Source: Escherichia phage PMBT57
Sequence record: MG770228.1
Reading direction: 5' to 3' (one strand)
Length of the DNA stretch: 64,000 nucleotides
Below, piece by piece: positions 11,701 to 51,450 of the stretch (its first letter is position 1; every line of letters starts with the position of its first letter). A program made the position numbers and the translations under genes. The notes under the pieces are model-generated. The model made no database searches and was not told where the DNA came from. It worked only from the letters and a program-made list of their open reading frames with translations.

Positions 11701-13307
11701 TCAGTTGCTTCAACAGCATCACGAATAGTAACTTCTGCTTCTGGTGCTTGAGCCATAGCTTCTTGTGCTGCCTGTGCAACATAGTCATCAGCAACAGGAG
11801 ATGCTTCTTCATTCTGCTTCATAACCCGTTCACCACGAGCTACCAAAGTGTTCTTAATAGGAGAAACAACCTTACCTGCTACACTACCAGCAGCTTTAAC
11901 ACCAGCCATTGTGGTACGCAATACAGGAGCAGTTGCAGCACCTGCTAAACGAGCAGCACCAGCCGGAGCCTGTACAACACCAGCAGAACCAAAGCCATAA
12001 AGAGCACCTAAACCAGCTTGTGTACCGACACCTTTAAGCAGGTCTTGGTTCTTATCAATGTTTTGTTGCTGTGCAATATTCTGAGCCAGTTGGCCTGTAG
12101 CACCCTGAACACCTTCTTCCACTGTTTCACGGGCAAGGTTCATACCTACAGCACCTAAAGAACCAGCACGGAAAGGAGCCATCTCAAAACGAGATACTAG
12201 AGGACCAGTTGCAGCAGCAATAGGTAATTGAATAGCAGCAGCAGTAAGACCAGTTTCAGATGCAGTTTGACGACGAGCCTGTTCAGGGGACATACCATCT
12301 TTAATATGTTGCTGATAAACAGGAGACTTCTCTAAGTCTTTAAGACTCATCTTCATAATTTCGTCAGCAGTTTGTTGGTATGCACCACCAGCTTCCATTG
12401 CACCAACACCAATCATACCTGGTGCAGCTCTGCCTACAGTAGAGGCAATACGAGCCAGTGACTGAGTACCAGTACCTGCATCAATAGCACCAGCCAATGC
12501 AGCACTACGAAGAGTATTTACTGGAACAACTGCTTTACCCAGTAAAGATGCACCCCTTAATACAGGACCAGCACCTAATAGAGAACCTACCCCTTCCGCT
12601 AACCCATCAGAAATAATAGAGTCAGTTTGAGCAGCGTTCTCAATTGAACCTACAAAATCACGTCCAAATTTAGATAAGGAAGCTACTATGTCATTAGTGC
12701 CTTCTTTCTTATCTGTTTGATACTGACGTTCACTCTCTACTTCACTCATTAAATTACGAGCAGCAAAGAGCTTACGTTTATCTTGTAATGCTTGGCTTTG
12801 GGTAGCATGGACAGCATCATTAAACTTACTCAATTGTTGGGCAATGACAGCACCTGCATCATCGTTGAGTAAGCCTGCCCCAAGAGCACCAATGCCCCCA
12901 AGGGTATTAACAAAACCAAGACCAACACCAGTAGCAATATCCCCCAGTTCTTCCCCAGGAGTTCTTGTAGTAACTGAATCATTAAATACCTGGTTCCCTG
13001 CATCAGCACGAGCGTTGATAAGTTGTAAGCCTTGCTCAACCCCATACTTATTCATGATTTGCATTGGAGTCAGATTCATGAAATCTGATTGCACTGTCCC
13101 TGGTTCAAATGCATTAGCCCCAACATTACCAGTACGGGCAGCTTGCATTTGATAAGCAGCATCAGGAGAAACAAGAGGAGTAGTGACACCTTGTTCAGCT
13201 TTCTTCTGGGCGGTTGCAGTAGAGACGTCAACTTGCTTTGCATTGGTTACGCTGTCTGCGAACCCAGCCAGTCTATCAAATACTGACATAGTAGGTTTCC
13301 TATACAA
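2787..13307 (-). CDS. virion-encapsidated RNA polymerase (N4 gp50-like vRNAP), 3506 aa
   Basis: Single 10.5 kb ORF; size and position at the start of the structural block are hallmarks of N4-like phages. Confidence 0.85.
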   Translation of the reverse strand: MYRKPTMSVFDRLAGFADSVTNAKQVDVSTATAQKKAEQGVTTPLVSPDAAYQMQAARTGNVGANAFEPGTVQSDFMNLTPMQIMNKYGVEQGLQLINARADAGNQVFNDSVTTRTPGEELGDIATGVGLGFVNTLGGIGALGAGLLNDDAGAVIAQQLSKFNDAVHATQSQALQDKRKLFAARNLMSEVESERQYQTDKKEGTNDIVASLSKFGRDFVGSIENAAQTDSIISDGLAEGVGSLLGAGPVLRGASLLGKAVVPVNTLRSAALAGAIDAGTGTQSLARIASTVGRAAPGMIGVGAMEAGGAYQQTADEIMKMSLKDLEKSPVYQQHIKDGMSPEQARRQTASETGLTAAAIQLPIAAATGPLVSRFEMAPFRAGSLGAVGMNLARETVEEGVQGATGQLAQNIAQQQNIDKNQDLLKGVGTQAGLGALYGFGSAGVVQAPAGAARLAGAATAPVLRTTMAGVKAAGSVAGKVVSPIKNTLVARGERVMKQNEEASPVADDYVAQAAQEAMAQAPEAEVTIRDAVEATDATPEQKVAAHQYVSDLMNATRFNPENYQEAPEHIRNAVAGSTDQVQVIQKLADLVNTLDESNPQALMEAASYMYDAVSEFEQFINRDPAALDSIPKDSPAIELLNRYTNLTANIQNTPKVIGALNVINRMINESAQNGSLDVTEESSPQEMQNVALAAEVAPEKLNPESVNVVLKHAADGRIKLNNRQIAALQNAAAILKGAREYDAEAARLGLRPQDIVSKQIKTDESRTQEGQYSALQHANRIRSAYNSGNFELASAYLNDFMQFAQHMQNKVGALNEHLVTGNADKNKSVHYQALTADREWVRSRTGLGVNPYDTKSVKFAQQVALEAKTVADIANALASAYPELKVSHIKVTPLDSRLNAPAAEVVKAFRQGNRDVASSQQKADSVNQVKETPVTKQEPVTSTVQTKTPVSEPVKTEPTTKESRPQAIKEPVSQSEKQDATLTNEDTIEQPTESVKETETSVKERTVTEELREGIDAVYPSLVGTADSKAEGIKNYFKLSFTLLEEQKSRTVGSEAPLKEVAQALSSRARYELFTEKEVANPAFNGEVIKRYKELMEHGEGIADILRSRLAKFLNTKDVGKRFAQGTEANRWVGGKLLNIVEQDGDTFKYNEQLLQTAVLAGLQWRLTATSNTAIKDAKDVAAITGIDQALLPEGLVEQFDTGMTLTEAVSSLAQKIESYWGLSRNPNAPLGYTKGIPTAMAAEILAAFVESTDVVENIVDMSEIDPDNKKTIGLYTITELDSFDPINSFPTAIEEAVLVNPTEKMFFGNDIPPVANTQLRNPAVRNTPEQKAALKAEQATEFYVHTPMVQFYETLGKDRILELMGAGTLNKELLNDNHAKSLEGKNRSVEDSYNQLFSVIEQVRAQSEDISTVPIHYAYNMTRVGRMQMLGKYNPQSAKLVREAILPTKATLDLSNQNNEDFSAFQLGLAQALDIKVHTMTREVMSDELTKLLEGNLKPAIDMMVEFNTTGSLPENAVDVLNTALGDRKSFVALMALMEYSRYLVAEDKSAFVTPLYVEADGVTNGPINAMMLMTGGLFTPDWIRNIAKGGLFIGSPNKTMNEHRSTADNNDLYQASTNALMESLGKLRSNYASNMPIQSQIDSLLSLMDLFLPDINLGENGALELKRGIAKNPLTITIYGSGARGIAGKLVSSVTDAIYERMSDVLKARAKDPNISAAMAMFGKQAASEAHAEELLARFLKDMETLTSTVPVKRKGVLELQSTGAGAKGKINPKTYTIKGEQLKALQENMLHFFVEPLRNGITQTVGESLVYSTEQLQKATQIQSVVLEDMFKQRVQEKLTEKAKDPTWKKGDFLTQKELNDIQASLNNLAPMIETGSQTFYIAGSENAEVANQVLATNLDDRMRVPMSIYAPAQAGVAGIPFMTIGTGDGMMMQTLSTMKGAPKNTLKIFDGMNIGLNDITDASRKANEAVYTSWQGNPIKNVYESYAKFMKNVDFSKLSPEALEAIGKSALEYDQRENATVDDIANAASLIERNLRNIALGVDIRHKVLDKVNLSIDQMAAVGAPYQNNGKIDLSNMTPEQQADELNKLFREELEARKQKVAKAKAEVKEETVSEKEPVNPDFGMVGCEHKASGVRILSATAIRNLAKISNLPSTQAATLAEIQKSLAAKDYKIIYGTPTQVAEYARQKNVTELTSQEMEEAQAGNIYGWTNFDDKTIYLVSPSMETLIHELVHASTFEEVYSFYQGNEVSPTSKQAIENLEGLMEQFRSLDISKDSPEMREAYADAIATIEGHLSNGFVDPAISKAAALNEFMAWGLANRALAAKQKRTSSLVQMVKDVYQAIKKLIWGRKQAPALGEDMFSNLLFNSAILMRSQPTTQAVAKDGTLFHSKAYGNNERLSQLNQTFDKLVTDYLRTDPVTEVERRGNVANALMSATRLVRDVQSRGFNMTAQEQSVFQMVTAALATEAAIDPHAMARAQELYTHVMKHLTVEHFMADPDSTNPADRYYAQQKYDTISGANLVEVDAKGRTSLLPTFLGLAMVNEELRSIIKEMPVPKADKKLGNDVDTLLTNAGTQVMESLNRRMAGDQKATNVQDSIDALSETIMAAALKRESFYDAVATPTGNFIDRANQYVTDSIERLSETVIEKADKVIANPSNVAAKGVAHLAKLTAAIASEKQGEIVAQGVMTAMNQGKVWQPFHDLVNDIVGRTKTNANVYDLIKLVKSQISQDRQQFREHLPTVIAGKFSRKLTDTEWSAMHTGLGKTDLAVLRETMSMAEIRDLLSSSKKVKDEISTLEKEIQNQAGRNWNLVQKKSKQLAQYMITGEVGNNLLRNAHAISRLLGERITNSPVADVAAIDKLTTLYSLELMNKSDRDLLSELAQSEVEGMEFSIAYMVGQRTEEMRKAKGDNRTLLNHFKGYIPVENQQGVNLIIADDKEFAKLNSQSFTRIGTYQGSTGFRTGSKGYYFSPVAARAPYSQGILQNVRNTAGGVDIGTGFTLGTMVAGRITDKPTVERITKALAKGERGREPLMPIYNSKGQVVAYEQSVDPNMLKHLNQDNHFAKMVGVWRGRQVEEAKAQRFNDILIEQLHAMYEKDIKDSSANKSQYVNLLGKIDDPVLADAINLMNIETRRKAEELFGKDELWVRRDMLNDALGYRAASIGDVWTGNSRWSPSTLDTVKKMFLGAFGNKAYHVVMNAENTIQNLVKDAKTVIVVKSVVVPAVNFLANIYQMIGRGVPVKDIAVNIPRKASEINQYIKSRLRQIDAEAELRAAEGNPNLVRKLKTEIQSITDSHRRMSIWPLIEAGEFSSIADAGISRDDLLVAEGKIYEYMEKLANKLPEKVRNAGRYALIAKDTALFQGIQKTVEYSDFIAKAIIYDDLVKRKKKSSSEALGQVTEEFVNYDRLPGRFRGYMESVGLMWFYNFKIRSIKVAMSMIRNNPVHSLIATVVPAPAMFGNVGLPIQDNMLTMLAEGRLDYSLGFGQGLRAPTLNPWFNLTH

Positions 13308-20129: not shown

Positions 20130-21335
20130 TTACAGCGGAGCTACAGTTTTAATAAGAGCCAGACGTTCTGGACGTTTAACCAGAATACCGTAGTACCATT
20201 TGATGCTGGAGAAGCCAGTTTCACCATATGGGTCATTACGGTCAGCAGTTTCTTTACCAGGCATCTTAGTCATAACGGTAAATTTAAGTGACTTACCGTC
20301 AGTCTGGAAGCCAATGGAGGTAAAGGAATCATCACCTACTACCAGCATTGGGTAAACGTCATAGTGCTCTTGGCCAGATACCATAGAGGTACGGTAACCA
20401 GGGTTAGCTCCAGTAGCCTGTGCACCAGCACCCGCCCAGTGCAGCATCTCTGGAACCTGAATGATACGGAACTTATCAATAGAACCGACTTCACCATTCA
20501 TGATAGTACCTGCATCAGCATAGTGCTGAGTTTCGATAAAGGCTTTATTACCGAACAGGTCTTTCATTGCTTTCAGTTCTGGAACCAGTTCAGAACCTAC
20601 ATACATGACACGAGTAGCACCGATGACTTTAGTATCAATCATACGGGAACCAGTGATGATGGTAGTCTGAGTAGGAGTACGGTTCTCCGTCAGAATCTGG
20701 TCAAGACGCATCAGGTTCTTATAAGAAACTACAGACGGGGTAGAACCTTCACCAGTGATGGTGGAATCAGAAGTAGCAGCACCAGCATACAGAACAGTAC
20801 CAGCAGCAGCCAGCAGGTCTTTTTGCAGTACAGCTTCAGTAATCTGAGTAGCACCATTCATCAGTTCACGGGACAGGTGTTCCATCAGGCCATCATCAGA
20901 ATCGAAGTCAATAGATTCCTGAGTGAACTCATAGAAGAAGCCAAACTTGTGAATAGAACCTTCACGAGCAATACGAGTAAAGCCAACACGGTTAACTCGA
21001 CCACCGTTTTCAGTCAGTAGAGGCAGTTTGGAGGTAATGTTACCGATGTCTTTGCTGGAACCATACAGGTTACCGTTAACGATGGTAGCACCACTTGCAT
21101 CAATACCCTGGTCATTGATGTTACGGTCATCCAGCAGAGGAACATATTCATATACCTTGATGGTCTTACCGTAATGCTTCGGCATGTTAGTTACAGAGGC
21201 CAGTGGCATGAAGTACTGCTCTTTACGGGCAGTGATGATTGCTTTCTTCAGCCAGAAGAAGGTTTGCATCTGGTCAGAGTTAGCACCATCAATACTAGAT
21301 TTCTGACCGTCAGTAGGAGCGTTATAGTTCAACAT
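20130..21335 (-). CDS. major capsid protein (N4 gp56-like), 401 aa
   Basis: Size and position between scaffold-like and downstream genes; terminator hairpin after it. Confidence 0.65.
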
Positions 21336-21346
21336 GTCTCAATTCC

Positions 21347-22564
21347 TTATAGGCCGTTCAGCCGAGGTAGTTTCATAAAGTCCTCGTCACTCATTGCAAG
21401 AGGATTAACAAGGACTTCTGTCTTACGCGGTGTAACCCGTGATGGGGATGCCGCTGCTGCCTGTTGAGTATTAGTGATTTCAGACTTAGGAGTTGCAACA
21501 CGAGTTGCTACTGGCTGAACCACTGGTTTAGGTTGTTCAACAGGTTTCTGCTTAATCAAATCATTAAAACCACCATTAGCAGCAAGGTAGTTACCGACTT
21601 GATTATAAGCATCCAGGAATGCTGTACCGATTGGGATTTGGCCTAAGATTTTGAGTCGTTCAATTTCAGAAACAATACGGTCGTAAATACCGTTAGCTTT
21701 CTGTTCAACGATGGTATTAACCAGACCACGGTTTTCCAGCAATGCCTGTTTGCTGTGGTCATCCCACGTAGTCGAAATTAACTGAAGAGTAGCTTGTCCT
21801 TCTGGAGTGGATTTAGCATCTTCCAGTTCGGTTGCAAATGCTGCTTCAGCATCTGACACACGGTGATTACCAGCTTGGTATTTAACTTCCTCTTCCGGAT
21901 TAATATCCAGAACATCAATACCAGATTCTTTAACCAACTTCTTAATAGCATCAGGATTCCCTTTAACTAAATCGATAGCATAAGAGAGTTGCCTTTCATC
22001 TAATAATCCGTTGTTTTCTAACATCAGGAGATACTTACGATACGGCTGAATCTCCTGCATTTTACGGGTATAGTTAGCTCCCATTTGCATCAGGCTAATG
22101 ACCTCTTCAGGACTCTGAGGAGTAATCATTTTGCCGTTAGCTTTAAACGGAGCCATTATCCGTTCATAACCAGCCTTATAGTCGAAGTCAGTTTTCTGGT
22201 CTGATACCTGCTTGTCTTCTTCTACTTTTGCTTGGCCTTGCTCAGTAGTAGAAGATGCATTATCAGTAGCAGGCTTACTGTTGCTGTCAACCTTATTTGG
22301 GTCAACTGTAGCACTATCATTACCAGTTGTGAATGCATCTGAATTGCTTTCTGATTCAGAAGTATTTTCTACTTCAGTTGGTTCAGTAGTTACTTCTGTT
22401 TCATCAGTTTGTTCAACTTCAACAATTGGGTCTGGTTGTGCAGGAGTATTATTTTCTACCGGTTCCGGGTTGTTCTGAATGCTTGTTGGACCAGGCATGT
22501 TCAGAATCTCTTCATCCGACATTTTAAAAATGTCGGAAGCTGTTTTTGCAGCTTCCGTAGTCAT
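21347..22564 (-). CDS. scaffold-like protein, 405 aa
   Basis: Acidic low-complexity N-terminal half; sits between portal and capsid genes. Confidence 0.45.
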   Translation of the reverse strand: MTTEAAKTASDIFKMSDEEILNMPGPTSIQNNPEPVENNTPAQPDPIVEVEQTDETEVTTEPTEVENTSESESNSDAFTTGNDSATVDPNKVDSNSKPATDNASSTTEQGQAKVEEDKQVSDQKTDFDYKAGYERIMAPFKANGKMITPQSPEEVISLMQMGANYTRKMQEIQPYRKYLLMLENNGLLDERQLSYAIDLVKGNPDAIKKLVKESGIDVLDINPEEEVKYQAGNHRVSDAEAAFATELEDAKSTPEGQATLQLISTTWDDHSKQALLENRGLVNTIVEQKANGIYDRIVSEIERLKILGQIPIGTAFLDAYNQVGNYLAANGGFNDLIKQKPVEQPKPVVQPVATRVATPKSEITNTQQAAAASPSRVTPRKTEVLVNPLAMSDEDFMKLPRLNGL

Positions 22565-38340: not shown

Positions 38341-38506
38341 ATAGGAAGTCTATTAGATAGATACCTTATAATTTTTTCTTAGTGAAAATAGTCATAGTTA
38401 CTTATGAGTTCAGTATTTGGTGGGGCTACACCCCTTACACCATAAGCACCCCCCCCCTGTCTTTACTAGTGTAGCCTTAGCCTACCCCACCTTGTACACG
38501 TTACAC

Positions 38507-38519
38507 GTTGCTTCGCAAC
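38507..38519 (+). promoter_or_regulatory. 5-bp stem / 3-nt loop hairpin, candidate vRNAP-type promoter
   Basis: gttgc-ttc-gcaac; template strand gives loop GAA with central purine; about 50 nt upstream of ATG 38571. Confidence 0.35.
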
Positions 38520-38570
38520 TTATGGACATGTTGTCCGTATCTTATCAATCAACTATTGGAGACTAATACT

Positions 38571-38897
38571 ATGACTACTCAGGCTAACGTTCGTATGACT
38601 GTAGGAACTCTGTTGGGTACTGTTAACGAAGCAGCAACTACTGTAGCTGATACATTCGGTACTGCTACTAAAGCAGTAGGTATGCTTAATCGTTATGTAA
38701 CTAAACAAGCAGATAAACAAATCATTCGTGACAAATTAGAAATGCATGAGTTTACCAATAAACTTATTGAAGAAACTGCAATGCAAGAAGCTATTCGTCA
38801 GAAACAAATCTTAGACTTCTGCAAAGATGAACAAAACAAAGAATTGTTCTCTAATGCCTATGACCGTCTTAGCAAAATCTTAGCAGACTCTAAATAA
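38571..38897 (+). CDS. early hypothetical protein, 108 aa
   Basis: ATG with RBS ggagac; ORF track frame opens at 38508. Confidence 0.55.
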   Translation: MTTQANVRMTVGTLLGTVNEAATTVADTFGTATKAVGMLNRYVTKQADKQIIRDKLEMHEFTNKLIEETAMQEAIRQKQILDFCKDEQNKELFSNAYDRLSKILADSK

Positions 38898-38909: not shown

Positions 38910-38933
38910 GGAGGCTCCTCGGAGTCTCCTTTT
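38910..38933 (+). terminator. intrinsic terminator
   Basis: Stem ggaggct/agtctcc (one G-U) followed by TTTTAC. Confidence 0.5.
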
Positions 38934-38973
38934 ACATAGAACCGATAGTTCAATAACTATCTACTTTAAAGAT

Positions 38974-38990
38974 AAGAAGCTCCGCTTCTT
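38974..38990 (+). promoter_or_regulatory. 7-bp stem / 3-nt loop hairpin, N4 vRNAP early-promoter-like
   Basis: aagaagc-tcc-gcttctt; template strand reads AAGAAGC-GGA-GCTTCTT, matching the N4 P2 promoter hairpin as I recall it. Confidence 0.5.
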
Positions 38991-39100
38991 TTGGATGAAG
39001 TAATGCATCCAATCCTGTATGAAATCTTAACCTTTTGTCTGGGATTACTTACCGACAAAGTAGTCTCAACTAATCAAAATCAACTATCTGGAGAGTACAA

Positions 39101-39488
39101 AATGGCTATCACTACTTTTGCTAAAACCTTTGGTCAGACTTCTACTAAAACTGAATCCAACAATGGTTCTCGCCCGAAAGCTCAGTTCTGGATTAACGTT
39201 GGCTACGTAGCTAATGAAGGCACTGAAGATGAACGTTTCATCTCTCTGCCTACTGGTATTCCACTGGATACTCAGGAGCATCTGCCAACCAATTCCTCTA
39301 ACGAAGACTTCCGTGCAATGCGTTGTGCACAGAACGATTTGTTAGACCAACTGATGGAATTTGCTAAGACTCTGGAACCGGGTCAAGAAGGAGTTATCTC
39401 CTTGCAAGTTCAACTTCGTCGAGTTAAAGAAGAAGCTCCTGCTATCTCAGCAAGTGAGAATAAATATGCTCGTAAACTGACTTTCTAA
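39101..39488 (+). CDS. early hypothetical protein, 129 aa
   Basis: ATG with RBS ggagag; ORF track frame opens at 38991. Confidence 0.55.
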
Positions 39489-39496
39489 TCTCTATA

Positions 39497-39521
39497 GGAC
39501 TACCTTCGGGTAGTCCTTTTT
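39497..39521 (+). terminator. intrinsic terminator
   Basis: 8-bp stem ggactacc/ggtagtcc, ttcg tetraloop, TTTTT. Confidence 0.7.
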
Positions 39522-39588
39522 AATTTTAACTATCTAAATACTAAAGTAGAGATTTTGACCCTTTTCGACGAAGGGATACTAAAAAGTA

Positions 39589-51249: not shown

Positions 51250-51450
51250 ATGTCTATCTTTACTACTAAGGTTAATGGTCAAAAAGTTACTGTTGTTGCT
51301 CGTAACGTAGCTTACGTTACTGAAAACAGTGAAGGCCGTGGTGTAATTACTTTTACTAACGGTGATTCCATTGATACCCAGGTAGGTTATGACTCTATCC
51401 GTCGTAACGTAGCTAAAGCACTTGATGGTGCTAAAGACATCGCAGAGTAA
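51250..51450 (+). CDS. hypothetical protein, 66 aa
   Basis: ORF track; RBS aaggaa. Confidence 0.5.
   Translation: MSIFTTKVNGQKVTVVARNVAYVTENSEGRGVITFTNGDSIDTQVGYDSIRRNVAKALDGAKDIAE

Follow-up and report, generated by a model that had tools for sequence, protein, structure and literature searches.

Judging by its sequence, the window analysed here, a 64,000-nt stretch of Escherichia phage PMBT57 (MG770228.1), comes from the genome of an Enquatrovirus with about 99% identity to coliphage N4, assembled in circularly permuted form. A query of 1.2 kb around a hairpin at 38974-38990 was 99.2% identical to Escherichia phage N4 (EF056009 / NC_008720) and ca. 99% identical to the N4-like isolates Jura, AL25 and AlfredRasser, among others. 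Position 38418 of the window corresponds to nucleotide 1 of N4, and the hairpin to N4 nt 557-573, in the gap between genes gp1 and gp2. It is therefore situated in the left, first-injected end of the genome, faces rightward and lies ahead of early genes, as do two other sites that precede gp1 and gp15; in N4, this end carries all the promoters for the virion RNA polymerase, vRNAP (PMC4496689). The relevant features are the following:

2787..13307, minus strand: virion RNA polymerase gene, gp50 homologue, an ORF of 3506 codons from the first TTG (ORF and alignment)
38507..38519, minus strand: presumed P1 hairpin, plus-strand GTTGC-ttc-GCAAC, template loop GAA with A at -11 (motif, folding)
38571..38897, plus strand: gp1, early gene upstream of P2 (reading frame and N4 annotation)
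38910..38933, plus strand: terminator-like hairpin (38910-38929), GGAGGCTCC-TC-GGAGTCTCC, followed by TTTT, just past the gp1 stop (terminator scan)
38974..38990, minus strand: hairpin very probably of the P2 promoter (sequence, folding, covariation, P2 oligonucleotide match, PMC4496689, PMC13492108)
38989..38994, plus strand: four-T non-template spacer (38989-38992) and then GG, with the predicted +1 at 38993 and +2 at 38994 (sequence)
39003..39488, plus strand: gp2 frame as annotated in N4, where it is 586..1071 (N4 annotation)
42963..42979, minus strand: presumed P3 hairpin, plus-strand AAGCTGC-tcc-GCAGCTT, template loop GGA (motif, folding, N4 annotation)

Genes gp1 and gp2 did not show a family in Pfam; gp2 is described as a single-stranded DNA-binding cofactor of N4 RNAPII (PMC4496689). 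A search of the hairpin region in Rfam gave no match above threshold. A sub-threshold match to L20_leader at 39421-39531 (25.5 bits for a gathering score of 58.7, E = 0.074) was regarded as due to chance; it overlaps the end of gp2 and a terminator-like hairpin at 39496-39517.

The plus strand reads aagaagc (38974-38980), tcc (38981-38983) and gcttctt (38984-38990), forming a perfect 7-bp inverted repeat with a 3-nt loop. Coordinates and sequence are as described in the first-pass annotation, which was also right in reading the template loop as GGA with a purine at its centre: the minus strand is 5'-AAGAAGC-GGA-GCTTCTT-3' and its loop centre is the G at 38982. Folded as single-stranded DNA, the hairpin reached -5.3 kcal/mol on the minus strand and -5.0 kcal/mol on the plus strand (z of about -2.7 to -2.8), a small difference between strands that is due to the special GNA loop not being modelled by the DNA parameters of ViennaRNA. 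The stem-loop geometry by itself is not distinctive in this window, and it is the full motif, defined below, that exceeds chance. Perfect hairpins that combine a 3-nt loop with seven or more stem pairs number 15, compared to 4.9 +/- 2.3 in 200 dinucleotide-preserving shuffles of the window, so that the architecture invoked in the first-pass annotation is present as claimed but is not rare per se. This roughly threefold over-representation of 3-nt-loop hairpins is itself an observation on the genome; further examples are the hairpin at 51311 and several long ones that are not in the early region, such as those at 22526 (stem of 10 bp), 25690 and 56553 (9 bp each). The vRNAP heptamer is absent from all the long hairpins outside the early region, which may be terminators or other signals.

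The requirements of vRNAP have been described in detail for N4. The enzyme requires a GC-rich heptamer centred at -11 with inverted repeats on both flanks (PMC4496689, Lenneman and Rothman-Denes) and specifically recognises -11A/G, -10G, -8G and +1C; extrusion and stability depend on a C:G pair that closes the loop and on the G and A at the 5' and 3' ends of the loop, respectively (PMC4496689). Four As preceding the start act as a ruler, the start being set eight nt downstream of -8, and the stem of P2 is 7 bp, the two outer pairs of which are melted by the polymerase (PMC4496689). On the minus strand of the window, numbered from the predicted start, the corresponding positions are:

38980: template -13, G, pairing with -9 to close the loop
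38981: template -12, A, loop
38982: template -11, G, loop centre
38983: template -10, G, loop
38984: template -9, C, loop-closing
38985: template -8, G
38989-38992: template -4 to -1, all A
38993: template +1, C
38974/38990 and 38975/38989: outer stem pairs, reported as melted by the intercalating hairpin of the polymerase

All the determinants listed are thus present, namely the -11 purine, -10G, -8G, the C:G closing pair, the 5' G and 3' A of the loop, the four As and +1C. The template strand carries a 3-nt loop of the form 5'-G-R-A-3' (GGA, at 38983, 38982 and 38981) on a stem within the 5-7 bp range; the 5'C(-9):G(-13)3' closing pair and the G at -8 occupy columns that are invariant in the 24 promoters aligned below, and the template C at +1 lies 11 nt from the loop centre. 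The transcription start is therefore predicted at the G at 38993, with a transcript beginning GG.

The natural P2 sequence was compared by way of a synthetic oligonucleotide from a 2026 paper, the list of determinants in a review and the GenBank record of N4. The "hairpin P2 promoter" oligonucleotide used in that cryo-EM study of full-length vRNAP is 5'-CATTTAATTGAGAAGAACGAACAGCCAAAAGAAGCGGAGCTTCAAC-3' (PMC13492108). The longest stretch that it shares exactly with the window, the 19-mer CCAAAAGAAGCGGAGCTTC, occurs a single time, on the minus strand at 38976-38994, and spans positions +2 to -17. The P2 hairpin given in the first-pass annotation, GAAGC-GGA-GCTTC, agrees with this oligonucleotide, and the comparison with published promoters proposed there yielded both the 19-nt exact match and the N4 GenBank record, EF056009, which is identical across the promoter. 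Within 38930-39110 the window and the N4 record differ only at 38973 (position -20) and 39084, neither of which falls in the -17 to +1 core; the two are identical from -19 to past +90, 39084 being a base of the leader. The base at 38973, adjoining the 5' side of the P2 stem, is T where the N4 reference has G, and T is also found in isolates Jura and SPSP. The site has the same location (between gp1 and gp2), the same orientation and the same polymerase contact residues as N4 P2, from which it differs in the bases at 38973 (T for G) and 39084 and in that the permuted record places it at 38974 instead of at ca. 557. Crystal and cryo-EM complexes with N4 P2 include PDB 3C2P, 3C3L and 3Q0A. A full-text literature search for GAAGCGGAGCTTC returned only two unrelated papers, and a loose search for GAAGCNNNGCTTC, allowing two mismatches, produced 43 matches that were mostly meaningless. 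These comparisons indicate that the element is almost certainly the known early promoter P2 of N4, here in a near-identical relative, and as such already known; as far as the sequence goes, nothing speaks against this reading.

Template GCGRAGC appears on the plus strand as the heptamer GCTYCGC, of which that strand has just three copies, at 38510, 38979 and 42968. Each copy is accompanied by a stem of 5 bp or more and by GG at +1/+2, and they lie upstream of gp1, gp2 and gp15, respectively. The full motif, taken as the GCTYCGC heptamer plus a stem of at least 5 bp plus GG 11-12 nt past the loop centre, appears three times in the window, always on the plus strand and in the early region, and was not found in any of the 200 shuffles. 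The sites upstream of gp1 and gp15 are presumably P1 and P3, the labels deriving from map order and gene context. Mapping of P1-P3 is said to be the work of Haynes and Rothman-Denes (1985), Glucksmann (1992), Davydova (2007) and Gleghorn (2008). The predicted +1 G is at 38524 for the presumed P1, upstream of gp1 (ATG at 38571), and at 42982 for the presumed P3, upstream of the RNAPII subunit gene gp15 (ATG at 43020). Both sites share with P2 the template GCGRAGC heptamer, the 3-nt loop, a stem of 5-7 bp and the GG at 11 nt from the loop centre; the presumed P1 departs from it in its 5-bp stem, its GAA loop (-11 A) and its TTAT spacer, while in the presumed P3 the stem, also of 7 bp, has another sequence (AAGCTGC) and the spacer is again TTTT. 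The literature on N4 likewise places three promoters, P1, P2 and P3, at its left end (PMC4496689). The minus strand has a fourth heptamer, GCTCCGC (20135-20141), but with a stem of only 3 bp and no GG at +1 it was not accepted as a promoter.

Conservation was evaluated in the regions upstream of gp2 from the annotated phages Moo19, PhAPEC7, JZBo1, F22 and VLCpiP4a and from 23 IMG/VR contigs. Relatives whose gp2 is 70-78% identical, plus one at 52%, contain a similarly spaced hairpin ahead of gp2, with an invariant GC-tcc-GC core and GG at 11-12 nt past the loop centre; the stems seen are AAGAAGC, AAGACGC, AGACGC, GACGC, GGCTGC, AGCTGC and ACCTGC, and the spacers in relatives are ttat, taaa and ttga, so that the T run is not kept. 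When 24 promoters of the window phage and its relatives, 16 of them distinct, were aligned, the GG at +1/+2 was invariant and the five inner stem pairs were paired in all 16 distinct sequences, with two-sided changes in four of the seven stem pairs. The covariation score was 0.438, against 0.139 in shuffles, and was reached by none of 500 shuffles, whereas pairing fell to 21-47% when the register was slid. The two outer pairs were often unpaired, which agrees with the published stem range of 5-7 bp. The 5-bp core stem thus covaries across the Enquatrovirinae, the two outer pairs being optional, consistent with their reported melting by the polymerase.

The more distant gp2 homologues (43-58% identity, excluding the one at 52%) are preceded by other hairpins or by none. 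Such divergence is not unexpected among schitoviruses, by analogy with Pseudomonas phage LUZ7: its early promoters, mapped by ONT-cappable-seq, likewise have a short stem, a conserved 3-nt loop and an initiating G, but they start 13-14 nt from the hairpin centre and have stems down to 4 bp (PMC9163698). The 11-nt spacing of the window P2 is N4-like, unlike that of LUZ7. Hairpin early promoters have also been predicted in LUZ7, LIT1 and PEV2 (PMC3715699).

Some related Enquatrovirinae contain additional vRNAP-type hairpin promoters, with the GC-tcc-GC core and GG at +1, between the equivalents of P1 and P2. They are located, by sequence and position, at:

L008:1260, extra vRNAP-type promoter
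L012:970, extra vRNAP-type promoter
L019:1094, extra vRNAP-type promoter
L020:154, extra vRNAP-type promoter
L018:480, extra vRNAP-type promoter

Members of the subfamily thus differ in how many early promoters they carry, the window having three. The record of phage F22 (L007, OP870143.1) starts, at 1-330, with an inverted copy of the P1 region that contains Ns, and its minus-strand motif at 197 adjoins a normal P1 at 317; this inverted copy probably arose in assembly, as an artefact of the genome end.

Other functions could be envisaged for an inverted repeat in this position. Being downstream of gp1 and having a stem that leads into a short T run, the hairpin could act, instead or additionally, as an RNA terminator or attenuator for read-through from P1 (RNA AAGAAGC-UCC-GCUUCUU, then UUGG). 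Nevertheless, its stem contains only three G:C pairs and only two unpaired Ts precede the GG, and in a consensus scan for intrinsic terminators (G+C-rich stem followed by at least five Ts) the P2 hairpin was not reported, the scan detecting instead a stronger site 40 nt upstream; this is the terminator-like hairpin at 38910-38929, which separates the P1 unit from P2. Relatives, moreover, keep the loop, the closing pairs and the GG at a set distance, and not the T run, a pattern that is promoter-like, and we consider a role in termination very unlikely.

An intergenic inverted repeat immediately 5' of a gene might also be a palindromic double-stranded operator for a dimeric protein of the phage or the host. 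The half-sites of an operator would keep their sequence, whereas stem positions -5 to -7 vary freely while remaining complementary; besides, all the P2 sites have the same asymmetric loop, TCC/GGA (TTC/GAA in the presumed P1 of the window), which is the signature of a folded single strand, and the N4 literature describes recognition of a hairpin in the single-stranded template (PMC4496689). An operator thus appears extremely improbable. As for a functionless chance palindrome, about five perfect hairpins of 7 bp and 3 nt are expected for the size and composition of the window, but this explanation is hardly worth entertaining in view of the absence of the full motif from all 200 shuffles, the exact match to the published P2 core, and the maintenance of the hairpin, through compensatory changes, in phages that share only 50-78% identity in gp2.

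The cognate virion RNA polymerase has its gene in the window as well. The mini-vRNAP segment of the 3506-codon ORF aligns end to end, with few substitutions, with PDB 3Q0A, 3C2P and 2PO4, and the full-length cryo-EM chains likewise align with few substitutions. Residues K114, R119, W129, K267, K268, K849, K850, D901 and R904, named as contacts of the P2 hairpin (PMC4496689), are all kept in the alignment with the window polymerase, which therefore has the residues that read the promoter. In N4, activity of these promoters needs gyrase-driven extrusion and E. coli SSB, is resistant to rifampicin, and has been documented by initiation in vivo and in vitro (PMC4496689). The mechanism is carried over here from the N4 literature, and we infer extrusion, SSB dependence and the actual start from the near-identity of both phages. 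Once the phage DNA is injected, supercoiling of its leading end by host DNA gyrase would extrude the short inverted repeat as a cruciform. The template arm has the core GCGGAGC and would form a GCGNAGC mini-hairpin, unusually stable, with a sheared G:A pair in the loop; E. coli SSB would melt the non-template arm, and the template arm would stay folded because it belongs to this mini-hairpin class, with a Tm above 70 C. Injected virion RNA polymerase would then bind the template hairpin, with docking unlocking its active site, and its intercalating hairpin (K267/K268) would open the two outer stem pairs. With the four template As as a ruler, synthesis would proceed from the template C at 38993, GG first, and rightward into gp2.

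Fragments GCGNAGC are known as exceptionally stable DNA mini-hairpins, with a Tm of 73 C for N=G and 76 C for N=A (PMC13037366). The template core GCGGAGC, as well as GCGAAGC in the presumed P1, corresponds to the d(GCGNAGC) mini-hairpins of Hirao and colleagues (PMC13037366), sharing their two G:C pairs and sheared G:A pair. Those mini-hairpins are, however, a motif of physical chemistry and not a class of promoters, while the P2 core sits in a longer stem that is read by the polymerase.

The first-pass annotation had the hairpin oriented for plus-strand transcription toward a gene at 39101. The orientation is correct, rightward towards gp2, and gp2 does lie downstream, but the ATG is at 39102 and the annotated frame opens at ATG 39003; the gp2 frame probably starts at the latter codon and not at 39101/39102. 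ATG 39003 is situated 10 nt past the predicted transcript start and is not preceded by a clear Shine-Dalgarno, whereas the internal in-frame ATG at 39102 is preceded by GGAGAG (Shine-Dalgarno). Gene gp2 seemingly has two start codons, and database records place its start at the upstream codon in N4 and PhAPEC7 and at the internal one in Moo19. The frame from the upstream ATG/GTG to the internal ATG is open in all 19 close relatives compared, with length differences of whole codons (31, 33 or 44; 33 in the window), and it encodes a conserved, hydrophobic peptide (MHP[IL][IL][YI]E[IL]L[TS][FL][CF]LG..TD). Variable columns in this extension fall three times at codon position 2, as compared to 12 at position 1 and nine at position 3, which looks like a coding signature. 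Additionally, the internal ATG and the bases just before it, 18 nt in all (tctggagagtacaaaatg), read the same in 18 of 19 sequences, the exception being Moo19 with one base changed, suggesting that the internal start is used as well. Since gp2 is reported to be tightly membrane-associated (PMC4496689), we speculate that the hydrophobic N-terminus might explain this association.

The transcript from P2 would begin at +1 with a stem-loop, GGATG-aagtaat(g)-CATCC (38993-39010), which encloses the first gp2 ATG (39003), and that from P1 would also begin at +1 with a stem-loop, GGACA-tgt-TGTCC (38524-38536). Among the relatives, the P2-class stem-loop shows one compensatory change (GGATTC/GAATCC, in L021), its other pairs being invariant, and the P1-class stem-loop also shows one (GGGTA/TGCCC, in L023 and L026); the structure is absent from P3-type leaders and from several of the extra promoters (L004-L026 compared). 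With a single compensatory change the covariation is weak, and we do not put forward the P2-class RNA hairpin as an established structure. We found no description of stem-loops in N4 early transcripts in the searchable literature, a scope outside of which the key primary papers fall. In the presumed P1 leader, an ATG at +5, inside the 5' hairpin, opens a 12-codon frame (38528-38566; MLSVSYQSTIGD) that stops 4 nt ahead of the gp1 ATG (38571). The position of this ATG parallels that of the P2-leader ATG within its hairpin, a likeness read by eye that may be incidental.

Virion RNA polymerase lacks the RNA-separation domain of the T7 type, and for this reason a hairpin at the 5' end might help to peel the nascent RNA off the single-stranded template. 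A role of the 5'-terminal hairpin in this peeling, in protecting the 5' end of the early mRNA, in controlling the first start codon of gp2, or in adjusting the ratio of long to short gp2 is a tentative proposal that we regard as rather unlikely.

What has been correctly identified here is a promoter that ranks among the best characterised in phages; this is a rediscovery and, as a finding, of small weight. It does illustrate that single-stranded hairpin promoters are recognisable from raw sequence, and its value for annotation is that the three early transcription units of a permuted genome are fixed, with predicted starts at 38524, 38993 and 42982. The promoter itself being known, any novelty would reside just downstream of the P2 hairpin where, if the last of these proposals were true, the 5' hairpin would govern how much long gp2, which might associate with membranes, is made relative to short gp2.
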